Below, piece after piece: positions 3,152 to 41,163 of a DNA stretch of 41,378 nucleotides. The stretch comes from Candidatus Kaiserbacteria bacterium RIFOXYD1_FULL_47_14 (GTDB lineage Bacteria; Patescibacteriota; Minisyncoccia; Phycocordibacterales; Phycocordibacteraceae), in NCBI GenBank assembly GCA_001781915.1, contig MFMU01000009.1, forward strand, positions 7,449 through 48,826, given 5' to 3'. Every line of letters begins with the position of its first letter. Positions within the stretch are counted from its first letter, which is position 1. A program made the translations under genes and the position numbers. Below the pieces are notes generated by a model. It was not told the origin of the DNA. It was given only the letters and a program-made list of their open reading frames with translations, and ran no database searches.

Positions 3152-3835
3152 CTATTTCTCTTTGCGCCAAGCATCGATATTCGCGTGGTGTCCGGTTTGG
3201 AGGACCTTCGGGACGCTGTAATTTTTACCTTTATACAAAATAGTTTCGGGGCGGGTGTAGACCGCTGATGAAGCGATTCGGCGTTCTTCGACTGACGCAT
3301 CTTTACCCAGAACGCCTGGGAGACGGCGGGTGACAGCGTCGACGATAGCGAGCGCGGGGATCTCTCCGCCGGTATAGACCGCCTCGCCCACAGCGAATTC
3401 TTTTATTGGTGCAAGCGTCTTCAGGATTTTCTTCGCGCGTTCGTCGATTCCTTCGTAACGGCCACAGACGAGAACAACATCGTCATATTTCGTGAGCGCG
3501 TCGGCATCTTTATTCGTAAATTGTTTGCCGCTCGGACTAAACCAAATGACCACTCGCCCATGTTTGGACTTCCGAAGTCCCAAAACTGACTTCTGAAGTC
3601 CTTTTCGCCCAAATGCTTTCTCGACTGCACGAACAACAGACAGTGCAGTCATCACCATCCCAGGCCCACCGCCGTATGGGCGTTCGTCTACCTTGCCCCA
3701 TTTATTATTGACAAAATCGCGCGGGTTCTGATAGTCAACTTTAATTTTTTTCTCTTTTCGAGCGCGTCCAACAATCGATGCATTCAAATAAGCATCGCAT
3801 GTTTCTTCAAACAATGTAATTAAGTGAAATTTCAT
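3152..3835 (-). CDS. trmD: tRNA (guanine37-N1)-methyltransferase TrmD
   Basis: 227-aa ORF with the TrmD motifs ERPYGGGPGMVM, VCGRYEGIDER, YTGGEIPALAIVDAVTRRLPGVLG and YTRP. It carries an in-frame palindromic insert (see the repeat at 3555-3601). Confidence 0.93.
   Translation of the reverse strand: MKFHLITLFEETCDAYLNASIVGRARKEKKIKVDYQNPRDFVNNKWGKVDERPYGGGPGMVMTALSVVRAVEKAFGRKGLQKSVLGLRKSKHGRVVIWFSPSGKQFTNKDADALTKYDDVVLVCGRYEGIDERAKKILKTLAPIKEFAVGEAVYTGGEIPALAIVDAVTRRLPGVLGKDASVEERRIASSAVYTRPETILYKGKNYSVPKVLQTGHHANIDAWRKEK
3555..3601. repeat. REP-B-like palindrome doublet inside trmD, in frame
   Basis: GGACTTCCGAAGTCC (3566-3580, 7-bp dyad) is followed 7 nt later by GACTTCTGAAGTC (3588-3600, 6-bp dyad). 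The 14-nt left flank CGCCCATGTTTGGA (3555-3568) is identical to 39463-39476 in the tkt gene. The element is translated on the minus strand as GLQKSVLGLRKSKHGR. Confidence 0.75.
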
Positions 3836-3841
3836 AAGCGA

Positions 3842-3915
3842 GAGATTTCGTGATTTCGGATAGTTGAAATGCCTAGTGCAGCGAAGCGTAACGCTATCCG
3901 AAATTACGAAATCTC
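3842..3915. repeat. Long intercistronic hairpin (22-bp arms, 30-nt loop) between the KH-protein gene and trmD
   Basis: GAGATTTCGTGATTTCGGATAG (3842-3863) pairs with CTATCCGAAATTACGAAATCTC (3894-3915). Of 22 positions, 21 are Watson-Crick and one is G.T. Each arm holds two GATTTCG / CGAAAT(C) half-sites resembling the REP-B core GATTTCCGAAA. Confidence 0.7.
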
Positions 3916-8943: not shown

Positions 8944-8961
8944 GCAAATACAAAAATTACT

Positions 8962-9000
8962 GGAGGTGAAACACCCAAGTTGCTTGGGTGTTTCACCTCC
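8962..9000. repeat. Palindrome C1 (perfect 18-bp stem, 3-nt loop)
   Basis: GGAGGTGAAACACCCAAG ttg CTTGGGTGTTTCACCTCC. It shares the GGT(G/T)AAAC..AAGTTGCT architecture with C2 (9930-9972) and the string GGTGAAAC(A/C)CCCAAGT with C3 (37867-37889). Confidence 0.85.
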
Positions 9001-9097
9001 AAGTTCTGGGTCTCTTGCTTTTGGCTTCGCAAGGAGCATACTTTATATGTGAGGTTTCGATCTCACTGTTGCTCTTTGGTTCAACCAATAACTCAGT

Positions 9098-9929: not shown

Positions 9930-9972
9930 TGAGAGGTTAAACCCTTAAGTTGCTGAGGGGTTTAACCTCTCA
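9930..9972. repeat. Palindrome C2 (15-bp perfect outer stem)
   Basis: TGAGAGGTTAAACCC ttaagttgctgag GGGTTTAACCTCTCA. The centre AAGTTGCT is shared with C1. It lies 4 nt downstream of the rnc stop codon. Confidence 0.85.
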
Positions 9973-9975
9973 AAA

Positions 9976-10677
9976 TTACCACTGCATCTTTTTAAGTCCT
10001 GCTTCTGCAGCTGCTTGTTCCGCCTCTTGCTTGCTCTGCCCTTCTCCGCGAGCAATTTCTTCAGTATCAATAAAAACGCCGACCGTAAAATGCCTTGCAT
10101 GGTCAGGCCCTTCTTCAGAAAGCGTTTCGTAGCGCGGCGTCGCACTGCGTTTTTCTTGCGAGGATTCTTGAAAGCGACTCTTCGCATCCTGATATGAACG
10201 CTTCGCGATTACCTCGTCGATCTTCCCGTAGAGATTCTTCGCGATAAATGCTTCAGCACCCGCATAGCCCGCATCAAGATAAATGGCGCCGATAATCGCT
10301 TCAAATGCATCGGCGAGTATCACATCGCGCGCACGGCCAGTGTCCTTCGCTTCGCCTTTTGAAAGCAAGAGGTAGTCATTAATGCCGAGCGCCTGTGCAC
10401 TTTCGGCGAGCGACATCGTGTTCACGAGCGCAGCACGATAGCTGGTCAAATCGCCTTCCGGCTTCGCAGGAAATTTTTTAAAAAGGAAATCGGTAGCGGC
10501 GAGTTCGAGTACGGCGTCGCCGAGAAATTCGAGTCGTTCATTATGACTGCCGGTATAATCGCGATGTTCGTTGAGGTACGAGCGATGCGTCAACGCCTCG
10601 ATGAGGAGGTTGAAATTGTTGAATAAAACGCCGAGTTGTTTTGAAAAAAGTAAGAAATCAGGCATGAGTACTCGCAT
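9976..10677 (-). CDS. rnc: Ribonuclease III
   Basis: The RNase III signature HRSYLNE...NERLEFLGDAVLEL is present, with a C-terminal dsRBD (GPDHARHFTVGVFI...GEGQSKQEAEQAAA). Confidence 0.93.
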   Translation of the reverse strand: MRVLMPDFLLFSKQLGVLFNNFNLLIEALTHRSYLNEHRDYTGSHNERLEFLGDAVLELAATDFLFKKFPAKPEGDLTSYRAALVNTMSLAESAQALGINDYLLLSKGEAKDTGRARDVILADAFEAIIGAIYLDAGYAGAEAFIAKNLYGKIDEVIAKRSYQDAKSRFQESSQEKRSATPRYETLSEEGPDHARHFTVGVFIDTEEIARGEGQSKQEAEQAAAEAGLKKMQW

Positions 10678-12707: not shown

Positions 12708-13313
12708 TCAATGCAGAAACGACCGTCGATGGAGGATGCAAGGGCCGTATTTCTCGAGCATTTCGTAGTGTGCCTTGGTGCCGTAGCCCTTATGCTTCTC
12801 GAAGCCATAGAGCGGATACTGTGCAGAAAGTTCGACCATCAGTCGATCGCGGACGACTTTTGCTGCGATGGAAGCGAGTGAGATAATCGGAATAAGTTCG
12901 TCGCCGTTGATGATGGTTTCTTGTGCATATTCGACCGGCGCGCGAAGCGCGCCGTCGAGCAGAATGTGGACACCTGGTGTCAAAAGGCCTGTAGACACCG
13001 GGTGTCCACATTCTTCTGCGAGAGCGTTCACGCCGCGCGCGAGCGCGCGACGCACAGCGAATACGATGCCTTCTGTATCAATAACTTCAGCATTTTCGAG
13101 TTCAACTCTGAAACGAACATCACCCTGAGCGACCCGATCCTCGAGCAAAGCGAAAATCTCTTCCCTCTTCTTTTCAGACAGCTTTTTCGAGTCCGCAACA
13201 CCAATAAATTCTTTTGCCACATCAAAACCCTCTGGCACAGCGACCACCCCAACCGAGACCGGCCCCGCCAAAGGCCCTCGTCCCGCCTCATCGACCCCAA
13301 GAATAAATTGCAT
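12708..13313 (-). CDS. rnhB: Ribonuclease HII
   Basis: MQFILGVDEAGRGPLAGPVSVG is the RNase HII DEAGRG motif. Also present are LLDG..., SIAAKVVRD and GYGT..H. The start at 13313 is supported by a TATACT box 6 nt upstream. The gene contains an in-frame palindrome at 12961-13014. Confidence 0.9.
   Translation of the reverse strand: MQFILGVDEAGRGPLAGPVSVGVVAVPEGFDVAKEFIGVADSKKLSEKKREEIFALLEDRVAQGDVRFRVELENAEVIDTEGIVFAVRRALARGVNALAEECGHPVSTGLLTPGVHILLDGALRAPVEYAQETIINGDELIPIISLASIAAKVVRDRLMVELSAQYPLYGFEKHKGYGTKAHYEMLEKYGPCILHRRSFLH
12961..13014. repeat. 54-nt two-tier palindrome (REPIN-like doublet) in frame inside rnhB
   Basis: The outer arms form a perfect 14-bp pair, AGAATGTGGACACC (12961-12974) with GGTGTCCACATTCT (13001-13014). 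The inner arms form a 6-bp pair, GGTGTC (12976-12981) with GACACC (12994-12999). The right half reads GTAG-ACACCGGGTGT-CCACAT. The element is translated as EECGHPVSTGLLTPGVHIL, and the opposite strand gives the mirror peptide MWTPGV.RP.DT.CPHS (ORFs 12868..13128 and 12790..13011). Confidence 0.85.
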
Positions 13314-20981: not shown

Positions 20982-22760
20982 TTAGCGAACCTCGTATTTC
21001 TTTTCGGTAAGTGCTTCGGTAATTTTCTGCATAATAACATTCACTTCATCATCAGTGAGCGTCCGATCGAATGATTGGAAGACGAGGCGGAATGCGAGCG
21101 AGGTCTTCCCTTCTTTCTCAAATCGATCAAACTGGTCGAGACGAATCAAAAATTCTCCTGCGTTTTCACGAATGATGGATCTCGTAAGTCCATCATCGGC
21201 GTCGCTCGGCAGCCAGAGCGCGATGTCTCGCGTAATAAACGGATAGAGAGAAAATGGTTTATACGCGCCTAGATGATACTGTTTTGGTTCATAATTTTCA
21301 TCATCTTGTATCGCCGGCAATCCGGGCACTGGCTCTGATGTTTCAACTGCAAGTTTCTCGCCGTCTTTGGTGAAAATAGTGCCGATTTCAAAAAGCTTCG
21401 GCTTTTCATTTGGTGCGAGCACCAACGGCGCAAAATATTTTGCGCGTTCGAGTGCTTCTTTCATATTCTCGCTCAAAGTAGCGCGCAATGCTGGTTTCGT
21501 CTTATCGAGCGGATTCGCCAATATAATGTCGCCCTTCTTCGCGAATGATTGTGTCGAAATCTCCGTAAAGCCGTGGTCAATCAGAAAGTCCTTCACACGC
21601 TCGATGCCACGATAGCGCGCTTGATTCGGCTTCTCAGCAGCAGGAGGAAGTTCGACTATTGATACTCGATCATATCCAAGAATGCGACCAACTTCTTCGA
21701 TGAGATCTTCAGGAATCTGAATATCGTTTCGCTCGAAAGACGGTGTAACCGTAAAGGTTTCGCCATCTATTTTGGTATCTAAATCAAGTCGTCTGAACGC
21801 ATCAGCAACTTCTTCTTTTGAAAAATTCACTCCGAGAACGCCATTAATCTTCGCGAGCGACACAGAGACCTCCTGAATCTTTTCTGAACGAGTCGGGTAT
21901 ACATCTATAACACCTATGACTTCCCCGCCGGCAATTTCTTGAATGAGTGCAAGCACATCGCGCATACCATATGCAGCGAGTTCCGGCGACGGACGATTCT
22001 GAAAACGGAGTGATGCCTCGGTCGGAAGCTTCAATGCTTGTGCCGCACGGCGAATGGTCGTGCAGTCGAAGTTAGCTGATTCAACAACAATGTCAGTTGT
22101 TGCAGAAGTAATTTCTGCATGCATGCCACCCTTAACGCCCGCGATACCAATCGGAATATCTGCATTCTCGTCAGTGATGAGAAGTGTGCCCTCGGGCAAA
22201 ATAAATTCTTCTCCTGAAAGCGTCGTGATTTTTTCTTCCTTCTTCGCGCCGCGCACGCCGATAGTAAACGCCTCATCTTTTTCTACCAATTTCGTCGCAT
22301 CAAAAGCGTGCATCGGCTGACCAATGTTGAGCATCACGAAATTCGTCGCATCGACGATGTTGTTTATGGAGCGCTGACCGACTGCTTCAATCGCTTCTCT
22401 AAGCCACATCGGCGACGGACCAATCTTCACCCCCTTCACGAGCGCGCCAACATACCGCAAGCATTTCTTTCCATCTTCAATCTCAACTCTTAAGTGGGGA
22501 CTTACGAAGTCCCCATTTTGGATGGGCGTACGAAGCGGATCGTTCTTGAATGGAAGGTCGAGTATCGCCGCAAGATCTTTCGCGATGCCCCGATGACAGA
22601 GACAGTCCGCCGCGCGATTCGGCAGAACTTTCACATCCATTCTATCTCCATCCTGCTCCTCTATCTCGAAAGAATGAAAAGTGAAAGCGTCAGTAACGAC
22701 ATCTGCCGAAGGCAGCGGCTGGTCAAAATATTTCTGTAGCCAATTTCGTGAGACAATCAT
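20982..22760 (-). CDS. pheT: Phenylalanyl-tRNA synthetase beta subunit (short form, 592 aa)
   Basis: MIVSRNWLQKYF is a typical PheT N-terminus. The B3/4 region (CLRYVGALVKGVKIGPSPMWL), the B5 region and a C-terminal FDX-ACB-like domain are present. The 5' end overlaps the pheS stop by 4 nt. Confidence 0.9.
   Translation of the reverse strand: MIVSRNWLQKYFDQPLPSADVVTDAFTFHSFEIEEQDGDRMDVKVLPNRAADCLCHRGIAKDLAAILDLPFKNDPLRTPIQNGDFVSPHLRVEIEDGKKCLRYVGALVKGVKIGPSPMWLREAIEAVGQRSINNIVDATNFVMLNIGQPMHAFDATKLVEKDEAFTIGVRGAKKEEKITTLSGEEFILPEGTLLITDENADIPIGIAGVKGGMHAEITSATTDIVVESANFDCTTIRRAAQALKLPTEASLRFQNRPSPELAAYGMRDVLALIQEIAGGEVIGVIDVYPTRSEKIQEVSVSLAKINGVLGVNFSKEEVADAFRRLDLDTKIDGETFTVTPSFERNDIQIPEDLIEEVGRILGYDRVSIVELPPAAEKPNQARYRGIERVKDFLIDHGFTEISTQSFAKKGDIILANPLDKTKPALRATLSENMKEALERAKYFAPLVLAPNEKPKLFEIGTIFTKDGEKLAVETSEPVPGLPAIQDDENYEPKQYHLGAYKPFSLYPFITRDIALWLPSDADDGLTRSIIRENAGEFLIRLDQFDRFEKEGKTSLAFRLVFQSFDRTLTDDEVNVIMQKITEALTEKKYEVR
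22492..22518. repeat. REP-B-like palindrome in frame inside pheT
   Basis: AAGTGGGGACTT acg AAGTCCCCATTT forms a 12-bp stem including one G.T pair. It is translated on the minus strand as QNGDFVSPHL. The core GGGGACTTCG.AAGTCCCC resembles GGGACTTCCGA.ATCCC of REP-B. Confidence 0.6.
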
Positions 22761-26538: not shown

Positions 26539-26559
26539 TGTGGCGGTTCAACCGCCACA
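26539..26559. repeat. REP-A copy 1 (just 3' of the RAYT-A stop codon)
   Basis: TGTGGCGGTT c AACCGCCACA is a 10-bp dyad. It lies between the Fic stop (26520) and the RAYT-A stop (26563). Confidence 0.85.
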
Positions 26560-26562
26560 AAA

Positions 26563-27234
26563 CTATTCGAGAAGAAGTCCTCTGAAATCTTTTAATTCCT
26601 CCTTTCTTTGCAAAATCGATTCCAGAGATGAAAGCGCGAACTCTTTATACTCACCAACATTTTTAAATTGCCCTAAAATAATTTCTTTTTCGCAAATGCC
26701 CTTAATCCTCGTATCTATATATTCTCCCCAACTTGACTTGCTCTCTACTAACTTGACAGTTGTGGCGATTGAACCGCCAAGTTGATGCACATGATCATTC
26801 AAATTCACATAGGAACTGGCGTGGAGAAGATATTCGTTTGAATCAATATGTATCGCTTTGAATCTTCCCTGAAATAACGCCCCGTTTCTTTCATATTTAT
26901 TATTAAAGTACCAAGTATATCCGCCAATTCTTTTCATAAACTCACTGATACCTCCATCTACGAGCTGTTCTAAAATGAGATGGTAATGATTCGGATTCAA
27001 ACAATACGCAAGAATATTAACAAGCTTCTCCGACAGTGTGGCGGTTGAACCGCCACACTGTCTACGCGAATTCTCATAGAGACTTCCTATCGGATCAATA
27101 ACATTGAATTCAATCATACTTTTAAAGAACCTTTCTATGTCGTATCGGTTCGTAAAGATAATCCTCTTATCAACCCCTCTGTTGAATACATGATAAAATT
27201 CTTCATTCGCGAAAGGTGCTTTTCTTGTACCCAT
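26563..27234 (-). CDS. IS200/IS605-family Y1 (HUH) transposase-like protein, RAYT-like (paralogue A)
   Basis: Present are FYHVFNRG, the HUH motif NHYHLIL, GALFQGRF and SSYVNLN (Tyr helix). Two internal segments (QCGGSTATLSE and LGGSIATTVKL) are encoded by REP-A palindromes. Confidence 0.85.
   Translation of the reverse strand: MGTRKAPFANEEFYHVFNRGVDKRIIFTNRYDIERFFKSMIEFNVIDPIGSLYENSRRQCGGSTATLSEKLVNILAYCLNPNHYHLILEQLVDGGISEFMKRIGGYTWYFNNKYERNGALFQGRFKAIHIDSNEYLLHASSYVNLNDHVHQLGGSIATTVKLVESKSSWGEYIDTRIKGICEKEIILGQFKNVGEYKEFALSSLESILQRKEELKDFRGLLLE
26763..26779. repeat. REP-A copy 2 (degenerate, inside the RAYT-A ORF)
   Basis: TGGCGATT g AACCGCCA has one mismatch in the 8-bp dyad. It is translated as GGSIAT. 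Confidence 0.65.
27032..27062. repeat. REP-A copy 3 (perfect 15-bp dyad inside the RAYT-A ORF)
   Basis: GACAGTGTGGCGGTT g AACCGCCACACTGTC. It is translated as RQCGGSTATLS, about 15 codons upstream of the HUH motif. Confidence 0.9.
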
Positions 27235-27260
27235 TGTTTATATCCTAACATTCGTTCCTT

Positions 27261-27277
27261 TGGCGGTTGAACCGCCA
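27261..27277. repeat. REP-A copy 4 (5' of RAYT-A, 15 nt from the tRNA-Thr 3' end)
   Basis: TGGCGGTT g AACCGCCA is a perfect 8-bp dyad. Confidence 0.85.
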
Positions 27278-27291
27278 CAAGTGAATAAGTG

Positions 27292-29136: not shown

Positions 29137-29901
29137 TTACGCGGCAGATGCAAGGCGGAGCGCCTCGATAATATCATCGATATCGCCTGCGAGAATTTTC
29201 GGCAGATTATGCCAGGACTTCTGGAGGCGATGGTCGGTCACGCGGTCTTGAAGATAATTATAGGTGCGGATTTTTTCCGAGCGGTCGCCCGTGCCGATCT
29301 GCGCTTTGCGCTCTGCCGCGTGCTCCTTCGCTTCTTGTTCGTCGTGCAGTTGTTCGAGCTTCGCGGAGAGAATCTGCATCGCCTTCTCGCGGTTCGCGAG
29401 CTGGCTGCGCTCTGATGAGGACTTCACATCGATACCGGTCGGAATATGCACGAGCCGTACTGCGGTCTCAACCTTGTTCACATTCTGCCCGCCCGCTCCT
29501 CCGCTTCTCGAGAATTCCATCTGAATATCGGCAGGACGAATATCGACAGTCGACTTCGCGCGGATAGGCAACACAGCAATTGAGGCGGTTGAAGTATGAA
29601 TACGACCCGACTTCTCGGTTAACGGCACTCTCTGGACCCGATGCACGCCGGTCTCGTAGCGCAAAGCATCATACGCATCAGAACCCACAATTTCGAGTGT
29701 GAGCTCGTCGATAATACGCGTCTTCCATCCGCGCCGTTCAGCGTACTTCTGATACATTTCTTTCAAATCACGCGCGAAGATAGTTGCCTCATTTCCGCCT
29801 GCGCCCGCGCGCAATTCCATCACAACTGAAATCGGGCTCGTGTCTGAGCTCCCTTCACTGCTCTTTTGCACTCCTCCTTTTAAATATTCCGAATAGTCCA
29901 T
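29137..29901 (-). CDS. prfA: Peptide chain release factor 1 lacking N-terminal domain 1 (254 aa)
   Basis: Present are [27 protein letters not shown], the RF1-type tripeptide region [28 protein letters not shown] (PxT) and the GGQ motif [24 protein letters not shown]. The protein begins about 20 aa before domain 2. Confidence 0.88.
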
Positions 29902-29909
29902 ATGCCCAT

Positions 29910-29915
29910 ATTATG
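29910..29915 (-). promoter_or_regulatory. -10-like box CATAAT, 8 nt before the prfA ATG
   Basis: The minus strand reads TCATAAT atgggcat ATG(29901). Confidence 0.35.
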
Positions 29916-29957
29916 ACATCCGATGTCCGAATGCACGGGGACATCCGATGTCCGAAT
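29915..29957. repeat. Tandem pair of an 18-nt unit GACATCCGATGTCCGAAT, each containing a GGAC/GTCC-type mini-hairpin
   Basis: Unit 1 is 29915-29932 and unit 2 is 29940-29957 (identical 18-mers, 25-nt period). The dyads are GACAT ccg ATGTC and GGACAT ccg ATGTCC. The pair lies in the rpmE-prfA spacer. Confidence 0.8.
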
Positions 29958-35073: not shown

Positions 35074-35104
35074 CTTATGTGGGATTTCCGAAACCCTACA
35101 TAGG
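35074..35104. repeat. REP-B copy 1 (upstream of RAYT-B)
   Basis: The sequence is CTTATGTGGGATTTC c GAAACCCTACATAGG. The dyad is centred on 35089 with G.T pairs and one A/C mismatch. On the minus strand it reads ATGTAGGGTTTCGGAAATCCCACAT, with a GTAG head. Confidence 0.85.
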
Positions 35105-35119: not shown

Positions 35120-35803
35120 ATGGATTTGTACCATGTACTTAATCGTGGAATTGATGGACGCAAACTATTTCTTGACTCGCAGGACTACGCGCGATTTGTC
35201 CATAATCTGTACGAATTCAACGACACTGCCCCTGCATTAGAATTTACTCGCCGAGATACGCATAATTCGAATGTGGGATTTCCGAAACCCTACATTCGGA
35301 AAAGGAAACGGTTAGTGGAAATTCATGGATGGCATCTTGCAAAGAATCATTACCACTTACTTATTTCAGAGCTGATTGAAGGCGGGTTGGCGACTTTCAT
35401 GAAAAAGCTAAATATTGGTTTTGCAAACTATTACAATGAACGATATAGGCGACAAGGACACCTTTTCCAAGGGAAAACAAAGAAAATCCTCCTTGCGCGG
35501 CATGAACATTTTCTCTACATCCTCCATTACCTTCATTTGAATTCGCTAGATTATTTCCCTGGCGCGAAGAAATGGCGCGAACGAGACAAGGGTATTATTT
35601 CGAACATTCCAAAAATACTCGAATACCTCCGAGAATATCGCTGGAGCAGCTATCTTGATTATTGTGGTACACCGAACTTTCCATCAATCCTCACCACATC
35701 GCTTTTTGGTGATGCTCTTGGCACGAACTATGTCTCTTCTCTTAAAGAATATCTGATGGACCGAACCTCTGAGGATATAGATCAGAAATTACTAGAGTAT
35801 TAG
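35120..35803 (+). CDS. IS200/IS605-family Y1 (HUH) transposase-like protein, RAYT-like (paralogue B)
   Basis: Present are LYHVLNRG, the HUH motif NHYHLLI, GHLFQGK and LHYLHLN (Tyr helix). The protein is collinear with paralogue A. The internal segment SNVGFPKPYIR is encoded by REP-B copy 2. Confidence 0.85.
   Translation: MDLYHVLNRGIDGRKLFLDSQDYARFVHNLYEFNDTAPALEFTRRDTHNSNVGFPKPYIRKRKRLVEIHGWHLAKNHYHLLISELIEGGLATFMKKLNIGFANYYNERYRRQGHLFQGKTKKILLARHEHFLYILHYLHLNSLDYFPGAKKWRERDKGIISNIPKILEYLREYRWSSYLDYCGTPNFPSILTTSLFGDALGTNYVSSLKEYLMDRTSEDIDQKLLEY
35266..35300. repeat. REP-B copy 2 (inside the RAYT-B ORF, in frame)
   Basis: The sequence is TTCGAATGTGGGATTTC c GAAACCCTACATTCGGA. The 17-position dyad is centred on 35283 with wobble pairs and one mismatch. 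The 25-nt core is identical to copy 1. Confidence 0.85.
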
Positions 35804-35810
35804 CCATATA

Positions 35811-35841
35811 ATTATGTGGGACTTCCGAAATCCTACATGAT
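35811..35841. repeat. REP-B copy 3 (between the RAYT-B stop and the fba stop)
   Basis: The sequence is ATTATGTGGGACTTC c GAAATCCTACATGAT. It has the same polarity as copies 1 and 2. Confidence 0.85.
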
Positions 35842-38067: not shown

Positions 38068-38073
38068 ATTATA
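38068..38073 (-). promoter_or_regulatory. -10 box TATAAT, 6 nt before the ATG at 38061
   Basis: The minus strand reads TATAAT agatat ATG. Confidence 0.4.
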
Positions 38074-39067
38074 TATGAATGAATGCACGAATAGCATCTG
38101 CTATGTGGAGAACATCGAGTCCATAGTGAGCGAGCAATTCGTCTGGCTGGCCTGACTGACCAAATTGATCCTGTATACCCAGTCGATGTATCGGCACGGG
38201 ATACTGTTCAGAAAGAAATTCAGTAATCGCACTTCCGAAACCGCCCGCGACTTGATGTTCTTCAATGGTGACGACGCGGCCCGCACGCTTCGCCACATCG
38301 AGCACCGCTTCAGTATCGAGCGGCTTTACGGTCGGTACATGGAGAACGACACACTCGATGCCTTCTTCGGCGAGCGTGCGGGCCGCACAAAGTGCCGTAT
38401 ATCCTAACGAACCAGTCGAAAGAATCGCAATTTTGAGCGTTCCTCCGCCAACTGGCGAATCCCAGAGAAGAAGCGCTTTCCCTATTTCAAATGGTGTTTC
38501 TGAAGTTGTAAAAGTCGGTGTTACTGCACGACCGAAACGAATGTATATCGGTCCATCGGTTGTCGCTGCAGCAACGATTGCCTTCCGCGCTTCTTCTGCA
38601 TCGCACGGCGCAATCACCGTCATATTCGGAAGCATGCGCATCATACCAATATCCTCAAGCATCTGGTGGGTCGCTCCATCAGGACCGACTGAAACGCCCG
38701 CATGCATTCCGCATATCTTTACTGACATCTGATTAAGCGCGATAGTGGTGCGAATGTGTTCATAATTTCTGCCCGGACTGAACACGGCGTAGGACGCAAT
38801 AAAAGGAATTTTCCCTGCAGCCGCCATGCCAGCGGCAACTCCTGCCATATTCTGCTCGGCAACGCCCATTTCAACAAAACGATCAGGGAACTCTTTCTGA
38901 AACTGTTCAGCGCGCGTGCTCTCAGAAACATCAGCGCAGAGCACGACGACGCGCGAGTCGGCTTTTCCTGCTTCCACTGCGCCACTTCCAAAACCATCGC
39001 GCATCGGAGCTTTTTCGATATCGTCCGCGAACACTTTTGCTGACATTCTTGCATCAGGATTAATCAT
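38069..39067 (-). CDS. tkt: Transketolase, C-terminal subunit (pyrimidine-binding and C-terminal domains)
   Basis: Present are MRDGFGSGAVEAGKAD..VVVLCADVSESTR, FVEMGVAEQNMAGVAAGMA and GATHQMLEDIGMMRMLPNM. The start at 39067 overlaps the N-subunit stop by 8 nt (ATGATTAA). An alternative ATG lies at 39046. Confidence 0.88.
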   Translation of the reverse strand: MINPDARMSAKVFADDIEKAPMRDGFGSGAVEAGKADSRVVVLCADVSESTRAEQFQKEFPDRFVEMGVAEQNMAGVAAGMAAAGKIPFIASYAVFSPGRNYEHIRTTIALNQMSVKICGMHAGVSVGPDGATHQMLEDIGMMRMLPNMTVIAPCDAEEARKAIVAAATTDGPIYIRFGRAVTPTFTTSETPFEIGKALLLWDSPVGGGTLKIAILSTGSLGYTALCAARTLAEEGIECVVLHVPTVKPLDTEAVLDVAKRAGRVVTIEEHQVAGGFGSAITEFLSEQYPVPIHRLGIQDQFGQSGQPDELLAHYGLDVLHIADAIRAFIHI

Positions 39068-39944
39068 GGCGGATTTCTTTAAGGAATCGTTCTCCTTCTT
39101 CATCTGTAGGCACTTTCCCGTGCCAATGATAATCATTTTCAATCTCCGGCACGCCCTTGCCGGGAATCGTGTGTGCGATAATGAGCGTCGGTTTTTCATC
39201 TATCGTTTTTGCTTCATCAATTGCTTGTATAAACTCTGTGATGTTGTGCCCATCGACTTCAAGCACATGCCAATTGAATGCGCGATATTTATCAGCGAGC
39301 GGTTCGAGCGGCATTATATCCTCGGTCATACCACCTATCTGTATATTGTTGCGATCTATAATCGCAGTCAAATTTGAAAGTTTATTTTTCCCGATGAACA
39401 TCGCCGCCTCCCAGGTGCTTCCTTCTTCCTGCTCGCCATCGCTCATCACACAGTAAATGCGCCGCCCATGTTTGGATATCGGAAGTCCCACATCTGATGT
39501 GGGACTTCCGATATCCCACATTTTATCGTCCATACGAAAGGCGTACGCTATACCAGCCGCCTGCGAGAGACCTTCGCCAAGCGGACCTGATGTGGTTTCA
39601 ACACCCGGCAATACTAAACGATCAGGATGCCCCTGGAGTCGGCTGCCAAACTTCCGTAGTGAGAGACATTCTTCAATAGGGAAATAGCCAGCGTGTGCCA
39701 TCGTCGCATAGAGTACCGGACAAATATGCCCGTTTGAGAGAACGAGCCGATCGCGCTCTTCCCACTCGGGCCACTTCGGATCGTGATTGAGAATATGAAA
39801 ATAAAATGCTGCAAAGATATCCGCCATACCGAGAGAACCAGCCGTGTGTCCGCTTCCTGCGGCAACAAGCATCTGAACAATTGTCTCGCGAATTGACTTC
39901 GCTCGTTTTTCCAGTGTGAGTAATTGCTCTTCAGTGAGTGCCAT
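39060..39944 (-). CDS. tkt: Transketolase, N-terminal (thiamine-diphosphate-binding) subunit
   Basis: Present are GSGHTAGSLGMADIFAAFYF, RDRLVLSNGH, LQGHP, VMSDGEQEEGSTWEAAMF and IIDRNNIQIGG. The gene contains an in-frame REP-B doublet at 39463-39521. Confidence 0.9.
   Translation of the reverse strand: MALTEEQLLTLEKRAKSIRETIVQMLVAAGSGHTAGSLGMADIFAAFYFHILNHDPKWPEWEERDRLVLSNGHICPVLYATMAHAGYFPIEECLSLRKFGSRLQGHPDRLVLPGVETTSGPLGEGLSQAAGIAYAFRMDDKMWDIGSPTSDVGLPISKHGRRIYCVMSDGEQEEGSTWEAAMFIGKNKLSNLTAIIDRNNIQIGGMTEDIMPLEPLADKYRAFNWHVLEVDGHNITEFIQAIDEAKTIDEKPTLIIAHTIPGKGVPEIENDYHWHGKVPTDEEGERFLKEIRHD
39463..39521. repeat. REP-B doublet (REPIN-like) in frame inside the transketolase N-subunit gene
   Basis: A perfect 20-bp inverted repeat pairs GGATATCGGAAGTCCCACAT (39474-39493) with ATGTGGGACTTCCGATATCC (39497-39516). 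The overlapping unit ATGTGGGACTTCCGATATCCCACAT spans 39497-39521. The left flank CGCCCATGTTTGGA is identical to that of the trmD element. The doublet is translated as MWDIGSPTSDVGLPISKHGR. Confidence 0.9.
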
Positions 39945-40725: not shown

Positions 40726-41163
40726 CTAGAACTTTGCAAGCCGTCGCGCGTGGCGTGGAGAATCAGAAAATGGTGTTTCGAGAAATTGCTTCACAGCTTC
40801 CTTCGCTTCTTCTGGAGTGATACATTGGGCGCCGAGTGAAAGCATGTTTGCATTATTATGTTCGCGAGAGAGTTTAATAATTTCTTGCGGACCGCCATAA
40901 AAAACGGCGGCGCGTACGCCGCGTACGCGATTCGCACACATCGCTTCTCCCTCGCCTGATTTTCCGATAACAATACCGCGAGCAGCCGCATCTGATGCGG
41001 CTGCTCGCGCGCAAGGCGTTACAAAATCCGGATAATCATCTTCAGGATTGAACACATATGCTCCCATATCTTCTACCTCATATCCAAGCATGCGAATCTG
41101 TTCAATGAGTACGCTCTTAAGCGCGAATCCTGCATGATCGGAAGCAATAAATACTTTAGACAT
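40726..41163 (-). CDS. rpiB: Ribose-5-phosphate isomerase B
   Basis: Present are MSKVFIASDHAGFALK, GIVIGKSGEGEAMCANRVRGVRAA and EHNNANMLSLG. The start overlaps the gap stop by 8 nt. Confidence 0.9.
   Translation of the reverse strand: MSKVFIASDHAGFALKSVLIEQIRMLGYEVEDMGAYVFNPEDDYPDFVTPCARAAASDAAARGIVIGKSGEGEAMCANRVRGVRAAVFYGGPQEIIKLSREHNNANMLSLGAQCITPEEAKEAVKQFLETPFSDSPRHARRLAKF

Follow-up and report, generated by a model that had tools for sequence, protein, structure and literature searches.

How did a perfect palindrome come to lie, in frame, within a transketolase gene, and what kind of element is it? This question is raised by a stretch of 41,378 nt (hereafter the window, or WIN) of Candidatus Kaiserbacteria bacterium RIFOXYD1_FULL_47_14 (assembly GCA_001781915.1, contig MFMU01000009.1, positions 7,449–48,826), in which the gene for the N-terminal subunit of a split transketolase carries a 54-bp insert. 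The insert consists of two inverted repetitive extragenic palindromic (REP) units, the arrangement known as a REPIN, and a gene resembling those of REP-associated tyrosine transposases (RAYTs) is located 3.6 kb away, surrounded by the same units. We consider it quite likely that the insert is a translated and tolerated REPIN of the REP family of this neighboring RAYT. Positions given below are those of the window; labels beginning with L denote DNA loci of relatives or metagenomes, and those beginning with P denote database proteins.

The insert and its host gene

The two features in question are:

39060–39944, minus strand: split transketolase N-terminal subunit, binding thiamine diphosphate (ThDP), 294 aa (Pfam Transketolase_N, E 3.7e-60)
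39468–39521, minus strand: REPIN-like head-to-head REP doublet, 54 bp or 18 codons, read MWDIGSPTSDVGLPISKH

The host protein matches the N-terminal component of a split-chain transketolase (6YAK) at E 6.4e-74, and because the Pyr/C-terminal subunit is encoded by the next open reading frame (ORF; 38069–39199, with the domains Transket_pyr and Transketolase_C), the enzyme is a split transketolase. Around the insert the protein reads ...GIAYAFRMDDK-MWDIGSPTSDVGLPISKHGR-RIYCVMSDGEQEEG, the inserted residues standing just upstream of a strand and of the (G/S)DGE motif. An earlier note on this DNA had expected about 18 extra residues here, and this was borne out. In phmmer alignments there is one gap opposite the insert, of 18 residues in 6YAK and 17 residues in human transketolase. 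Apart from a 99% identical strain (L132), the closest database relatives after masking of the insert are P0017 (87.7%) and P0013 (87.6%), both insert-free. In the DNA of the nearest relatives, L130 and L131, the site reads ATG GAT GAT AAA AAA CAG CGC, with no insert, where the window has ATG GAC GAT AAA, the insert, and ...CGG CGC. Since the nearest relatives lack the 54 bp, the sequence was added. It was added in frame to a conserved gene whose ORF is still open, as in the Rickettsia palindromic elements (RPEs).

On its coding (minus) strand, the whole element is ATGTGGGATATCGGAAGTCCCACAT-CAG-ATGTGGGACTTCCGATATCCAAACAT, that is, two units of 25 and 26 nt, inverted and head facing head across a 3-nt spacer. 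The REP units are short imperfect palindromes headed by GT[AG]G, of the form ATGTGGGA...TCCYACAT (in relatives, ATGTAGGA); in the doublet, one of the units has the variant outer tail TCCAAACAT in place of TCCCACAT (coding strand). Within the doublet lies a perfect palindrome with two 21-nt arms, 39474–39494 and 39496–39516, that are 100% complementary around a 1-nt centre. It is the same palindrome that had been described as a 20-bp inverted repeat around a 3-nt centre (39474–39516). Its chance expectation in 41 kb is about 1e-8, and when up to 3 mismatches are allowed, the window contains the arm three times, against no occurrence in 100 shuffles. The element as a whole had been placed at 39463–39521; it is real, but its span is refined here to 39468–39521. 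Predicted single-strand folding of the doublet region gives −41.5 kcal/mol as RNA (z −7.8) and −25.8 as DNA (z −8.2), so that, as in REPINs, an inverted REP pair forms one predicted hairpin. Both strands are open, as previously observed, and the plus-strand ORF 39457–39687 likewise encodes DIGSPTSDVGLPIS.

In an AlphaFold2 model of the host protein (mean predicted local distance difference test score, pLDDT, 68.5), the insert residues 143–158 are coil with pLDDT below 50, between the helix 123–144 and the strand 163–168 that leads to the SDG motif. This modeled position agrees with the surface loop that had been anticipated, and from the general α/β architecture the loop would be expected at that end of the strand which points away from the cofactor. 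The ThDP motif (39436–39444) has SDG for the canonical GDG in nearly all members of the clade, where it is the rule and not a defect. Tryptic digestion is predicted to release the peptide MWDIGSPTSDVGLPISK if the insert is translated.

RAYT-1 and the recurrence of its repeats

The 25-nt unit ATGTGGGAYTTCCGAWAYCCYACAT, at 39497–39521 in the doublet, has three further copies in the window, all of them at one gene:

35120–35803, plus strand: gene for a RAYT-like Y1/HUH tyrosine transposase (RAYT-1), 227 aa, identified by motifs, Pfam at family level, and fold
35077–35101, plus strand: REP unit ATGTGGGATTTCCGAAACCCTACAT, just 5' of RAYT-1
35271–35295, plus strand: REP unit within the RAYT-1 coding sequence, in frame as NVGFPKPYI
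35814–35838, plus strand: REP unit ATGTGGGACTTCCGAAATCCTACAT, just 3' of RAYT-1

The unit ATGTGGGAYTTCCGAAAYCCTACAT is found 19 nt upstream of, inside, and 11 nt downstream of ORF 35120–35803, and the membership of the insert in the REP family bracketing this gene, as claimed in the earlier note, is established by the shared 25-nt unit. Nor is the palindrome unique to its locus, as it belongs to the REP family at the neighboring Y1/HUH-type gene. The window and 15 related species have RAYT-1 in one and the same place, flanked by the aldolase and L25 genes, as expected of a vertically inherited RAYT; in L130 and L131 there is no RAYT between these two genes.

The assignment of RAYT-1 rests on several lines of comparison. 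Pfam Y1_Tnp matches 16 of its 18 orthologues (best E 3.2e-9), and their alignment shows an invariant H77-x-H79 (NHYHLL; H77-Y-H79 in RAYT-1) and Y133/Y137-x-H-L-N. Searches of the PDB by sequence were fruitless, there being no match by phmmer for the RAYT-like protein and, as the best match for a profile of the 18 orthologues, only ISDra2 TnpA at E 0.44; the fold had therefore to be compared. The model has the β-α-β-β-α-β-α order of Y1 transposases, with a pLDDT of 70–84 in the core, and the PDB structures that Foldseek ranks highest for it are those of IS608 TnpA, of ISDra2 TnpA, and of the REP-associated transposase from E. coli (4ER8), with E values near 1e-4 and TM scores reaching 0.62 on the target. 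The family counts 1862 homologues at E ≤ 1e-10, whose named sources belong to the candidate phyla radiation (CPR) and which are annotated as 'hypothetical protein' or 'putative transposase'.

The layout with REPs on both sides of RAYT-1 is the same in 12 other species. Across 12 species the 5', internal, and 3' REPs have constant positions and are near-identical within a genome and different between genomes, from which it follows that the copies at orthologous positions change together. RAYT-dependent replacement, conversion between copies, and selection to fit the enzyme are all possible causes of this concerted change. The internal in-frame REP is kept at residues ~52–60 (NVGxxxS[YH]I or MSGRTTSRH) in nearly all of 120 RAYT-1 homologues and was also seen in the DNA of L001, L005, L017, L025, L029, L030, L040, L046, L048, L049, and L063. 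In L001 the gene caller had cut the RAYT gene short just downstream of the internal REP.

The survey of the transketolase site covered 120 proteins and DNA from 80 GTDB species, the homologues originating from metagenome-assembled genomes (MAGs) of Paceibacterota, Kaiserbacteria, and Minisyncoccota. Between AFRMD and RVYCxMSDGE, the site is empty in ~55 of the 80 species. REP doublets are present in the window, L001, L024, L029, L035, and L066, those of L024 and L035 with 27-nt perfect arms. The doublets of L003, L023, and L044 are decayed, that of L074 belongs to another REP family, and L011, L043, L053, and L065 have REP singlets. In L028 the sequence RMDGAKRR may be an excision footprint. 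About 8 species have unrelated short repeats or microsatellites at the site, and the variety of repeats indicates that this loop of transketolase accepts various short repeats. In some species this codon site has, in place of REPs, a CTACAAC microsatellite (NLQPTTYNLQ) or NFQF-type repeats (L021, ~2838–2876; L005, ~10409–10447). Species bearing inserts are scattered among empty ones in a neighbor-joining tree, and a 42-bp insert distinguishes L025 from L049, to which it is very closely related; either repeated insertion or replacement in place may have occurred at the site. A gene of the bAvd/23S-rRNA-IVP family was observed between the transketolase N and C subunit genes of one relative (L003, 10908–11315; L004, 6328–6735).

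Doublets are also present in other housekeeping genes. A metagenome scan with the doublet centre TCCCACATCNGATGTGGGA returned 45 loci, 23 of which are full doublets with variable 9-nt cores. All 23 are in frame within long ORFs, read ...D-xxx-PTSDVG-xxx-S..., and their hosts by Pfam are UvrB, an S-adenosylmethionine (SAM) methyltransferase, TsaD, TGT, a Mur ligase (MurC), GltX, a HolB-like DNA polymerase III delta' subunit, a class-V aminotransferase, AlaRS (AlaS), and transketolase; one TGT protein carries two doublets. Of 20 distinct loci, 19 are fully complementary at the 12 positions outside the centre used for the search. For GltX, TsaD, the delta' subunit, the methyltransferase, TGT, and transketolase, doublets with different compensating cores occupy the same site in different species. 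A 14-mer, TCCAAACATGGGCG, is common to the transketolase insert and a decayed doublet in the trmD gene of the window, and this tail is also found in the Tgt and class-V aminotransferase genes of L101 and L126. About half of the loci returned by the scan were set aside, since they hold an unrelated short palindrome, TTCCCACATCSGATGTGGGAA, mostly outside ORFs; it has the doublet centre but not the arms, and was noticed in L085, L087, L088, L092, L094, and ~17 other metagenome loci.

Doublets have a second open frame; still, 12 of 13 independent gene sites, TrmD of the window included, share one frame (p 0.0017 at one half), the exception being RpiB of L024. Judging from sequence, the conserved frame, the lack of stops, and the lengths in multiples of three argue that the inserts are probably translated and the peptide under some selection. 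Colonization of coding sequence had been proposed from the window, and in-frame copies were indeed found in the TrmD, RNase HII, and RAYT genes and, in relatives, in at least 10 other housekeeping genes. The extragenic location of REP/REPIN systems is thus not shared by the copies in the transketolase, TrmD, RNase HII, and RAYT genes of the window.

Do the inserts go with RAYT-1? When each was compared with the REP type at the RAYT of its own genome, 0–1 mismatch was counted in 6 of the 8 genomes in which both are visible, and a given foreign genome usually did not match. To call the REP cores genome-specific would be too strong, as a few core types are common to several genomes. An insert of any type is present in 12 of 16 species with a syntenic RAYT-1 and in 8 of 42 without (p 1.2e-4), and a REP-type insert in 7 of the 16 and 5 of the 42 (p 0.013), by Fisher tests made without phylogenetic correction, which, together with the following points, counts against the reading proposed here. 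The inserts of L043 and L065 are unlike the local RAYT REPs, and five species have a REP-type insert yet no RAYT-1 in the fetched flanks. The neighbor-joining tree was built on insert-masked transketolase N subunits from a short alignment with no support values, and was for this reason not used for counting gains and losses. At 21 doublet junctions no convincing target motif or target-site duplication was recognized; the right end is usually CACAT-GGGCG and the left flank often A-rich. Window RAYT-1 reaches 21 bits with Pfam Y1_Tnp, below the gathering cut-off of 23, and its model has a low mean pLDDT of 53.9. With the NCBIfam RAYT model NF047646, the RAYT-like proteins score 19.5–24.5 bits (RAYT-1 itself 19.5) against a cut-off of 80. 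Of the RAYT-like gene noted previously, the Y1/HUH motifs and fold thus stand but the curated cut-off is missed, and we use the term RAYT-like for a distant family that is RAYT by context, motifs, and fold. Finally, the REP count (four clean units and one doublet, ~3 decayed copies, and two other REP families) covers 41 kb of the genome.

Origin of the insert and comparison with known systems

As we explain it, the insert is a REPIN cognate to RAYT-1, in which two hairpin-forming REP units with GT[AG]G heads face each other across 3 nt; it would have been mobilized by this enzyme and would occupy a permissive surface loop at the far end of the strand bearing the ThDP/Mg (S/G)DG motif. Transcription and translation of the insert would give a presumably neutral loop of 18 residues, many of them Gly, Ser, Pro, Thr, or Asp, and leave the enzyme functional. 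This would be one instance of a lineage-wide habit in the Paceibacteria (CPR): in genomes with almost no intergenic DNA, copies would persist in frame in housekeeping loops, often with one codon site occupied in different species, and their likeness within a genome would be kept by fresh RAYT-dependent insertion or replacement or by conversion between copies. More tentatively, the Paceibacteria may harbor a REPIN population that resides mainly in coding sequence, in one frame and in orthologous loops across genera, undergoes RAYT-dependent replacement or conversion by which its copies stay identical within a genome, and whose self-carried REP in the RAYT gene is possibly autoregulatory; at present we would sooner doubt than accept this wider picture. 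If true, it would describe a vertically inherited, translated population of mobile elements that evolves in concert inside essential genes.

Other origins have to be weighed against a translated, tolerated REPIN. The element, derived from REPs, might now be retained at a fixed site by selection for a host function and not by mobility, be it as an mRNA or DNA hairpin (for control of translation or decay in the pentose-phosphate operon, or as a RAYT binding site) or as a useful protein loop. Such a role would suit the codon sites shared by several species in the transketolase, GltX, TsaD, HolB, Tgt, and methyltransferase genes, the perfect complementarity of the arms despite differing cores, the REP at one codon position in nearly all of the 120 RAYT homologues, the very stable predicted hairpin, and the near-constant reading frame. 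We nevertheless regard it as unlikely, given that ~55 of the 80 species, including the nearest relatives of the window, have no insert at all, that unrelated repeat families and microsatellites are found at the transketolase site, that copies are decayed in L003, L023, L044, and the TrmD gene of the window, that the host proteins are mutually unrelated, and that the insert is modeled as a disordered coil. Less probable again is the creation or perfection of the palindrome on the spot by hairpin-templated replication errors, its likeness to REPs being due to conversion and no transposition into the transketolase gene having taken place. The RpiB gene of the window contains a perfect 16+1+16 palindrome without length change relative to orthologues, so perfection can occur here without insertion, and no target duplication was found; however, all 54 bp are absent from the nearest relatives, the added segment has the complete two-unit REP anatomy with GTGG heads, and its tail TCCAAACATGGGCG recurs in TrmD of the window and in the Tgt and class-V aminotransferase genes of L101 and L126.

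The segment could also escape translation, if the ribosome bypassed the hairpin or the RNA segment were removed. Palindromic inserts are bypassed in phage T4 gene 60 and as mitochondrial byp elements, and the insert may resemble these; its RNA hairpin, predicted at −41.5 kcal/mol, points in the same direction. All 23 doublets and all transketolase inserts are, however, in frame, free of stops, and multiples of 3 nt, and the use of one of the two open frames at 12 of 13 sites suggests that the encoded peptide is under selection, as would not be expected with bypassing, making this a very remote alternative. Palindromic chimeras do occur in amplified metagenomes, and an artefact of assembly or amplification was considered for that reason, but the identical 54-bp insert is present in the independent ENA assembly of the 99% strain (L132), which excludes an assembly artefact, and homologous inserts occur in dozens of MAGs of different projects; we give practically no credence to this explanation.

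For the translated REPIN, then, the closest parallels are in systems already described. REPINs are REP doublets that form hairpins and owe their duplication to a REP-associated tyrosine transposase encoded in single copy (Bertels & Rainey, PMC3116915; bioRxiv 10.1101/2021.07.10.451892), and they are described as almost exclusively extragenic (bioRxiv 10.1101/2021.07.10.451892). As in these, there is an inverted REP pair with one long hairpin, REPs flank a Y1/HUH gene, the gene occupies a constant space between genes across many species, implying vertical inheritance, and each of several RAYT paralogues has a REP family to itself. The doublet of the window, in contrast, has 54 bp with a 3-nt spacer where REPINs have ~100 bp, the copies are mostly intragenic and in frame, the host belongs to the CPR/Paceibacteria, and the RAYT is of a distant family (~20 bits vs. 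80) whose gene bears its own REP in frame.

Intragenic REPs are themselves not without precedent. The earlier note had taken REPs to be extragenic by definition, which does not hold, because intragenic dimers of the GTAG/CGTC class were published in 2013 (PMC3733652). More than half of the intragenic GTAG/CGTC REPs listed by Di Nocera et al. 2013 are dimers or grouped, encoding 20–30 residues, and their hosts include uvrB and tRNA synthetase genes (PMC3733652). The present elements are similar in their GT[AG]G heads, in the head-to-head intragenic dimers of ~20 residues, and in uvrB and tRNA synthetase hosts, and for the GTAG/CGTC class one case has been reported, in Xanthomonas recB, where different REPs occupy roughly one site. 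There, however, intragenic cases are a minority of extragenic families (Proteobacteria, Opitutus, and others), whereas here 23 of 23 sampled doublets are intragenic, orthologous codon sites hold variants matching the resident RAYT, and one frame dominates.

RPE-4 and RPE-6 of Rickettsia have been assigned to the GTAG/CGTC class (PMC3733652), and RPEs in frame in essential genes have been reviewed (PMC10969869). Like the doublets, they are palindromic repeats found in frame within the essential genes of an organism with a reduced genome, where surface loops presumably tolerate them (PMC3733652, PMC10969869). RPE-1-type elements differ in having ~100–150 bp and 30–50 residues, vs. 54 bp and 18 residues here, and the likeness is treated as one of functional analogy; moreover, no partner transposase has been demonstrated next to RPEs, whereas the present doublet has, at 3.6 kb, a RAYT-like gene accompanied by the same REPs. 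The Y1 transposases of the IS200/IS605 family (IS608 TnpA, ISDra2 TnpA) share with RAYT-1 the predicted fold, the HUH and Tyr motifs, and, probably, single-stranded hairpin substrates; in contrast, no IS-like mobile unit surrounds RAYT-1, which is syntenic and single per family, as RAYTs are, and its C-terminal ~90 residues are without match.

Because intragenic REP dimers and RPEs have already been published, the kind of phenomenon is known. A literature search for it in CPR/Patescibacteria found nothing relevant, and what looks new in the searched literature is that the elements occur in the CPR, that the doublet is so short, that intragenic copies in a near-constant frame (PTSDVG) dominate, that variants matching the resident RAYT recurrently fill orthologous codon sites, and that RAYT genes have their own in-frame REP. 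REPINs serve as the model of persistent, vertically inherited mobile elements, surviving because they keep out of genes, and the related system of the ultra-compact CPR genomes appears to live largely inside essential genes, as translated loops. The inserts provide a natural map of insertion-tolerant loops in core enzymes, and as lineage-specific indels they will mislead gene callers and disturb the alignment and phylogeny of CPR proteins. How short palindromes scattered over a genome are kept alike becomes testable through them, and the known range of RAYT-like enzymes is widened.

Other repeats in the window

Further repeats and palindromes of the window are:

3555–3601, minus strand: decayed REP doublet in trmD, of the same family as the transketolase insert, in frame as GLQKSVLGLRKSKHGR
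12958–13017, minus strand: doublet of a third REP family (ATGTGGACACCNGGTGTCYACA) in the RNase HII gene, in frame as ECGHPVSTGLLTPGVH
26540–27278, minus strand: second RAYT-like paralogue (26563–27234) with its own REP family, GTGGCGGTTSAACCGCCAC
22492–22517, minus strand: REP-like hairpin GGGGACTTCGTAAGTCCCC in pheT, read NGDFVSPH
29915–29957, no strand assigned: two direct copies of the REP-core-like GACATCCGATGTCCGAAT, intergenic, upstream of the release-factor-like ORF 29137–29901

The trmD doublet makes the protein ~12 residues longer than solved TrmD. The RNase HII doublet, of 60 bp, coincides with 12 residues that are extra with respect to E. coli RNase HII, and no second copy of its family ATGTGGACACCNGGTGTCYACA was found in the window. 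The second RAYT-like paralogue is 33% identical to RAYT-1. Two of its GTGGCGGTTSAACCGCCAC REPs are flanking (26540 and 27260) and two are in frame inside the gene (26762 and 27038), read QCGGSTATL and QLGGSIATT. For the pheT hairpin an insertion is not claimed, as the protein is only ~2 residues longer than solved PheT.

The RpiB palindrome (40977–41009, minus strand) is CGCGAGCAGCCGCATC-G-GATGCGGCTGCTCGCG, read ARAAASDAAAR. Its interpretation as a length insertion was rejected for lack of added length, and it may be a perfected quasi-palindrome. In relatives this loop of RpiB carries inserts, for instance the REPIN doublet of L024 (5925–5975), which is in the other open frame. Intergenic hairpins were also observed at 8961–9001, 9930–9972, and 3842–3915, with perfect or near-perfect arms of 19–22 nt, terminator-like and unrelated in sequence to the REPs.

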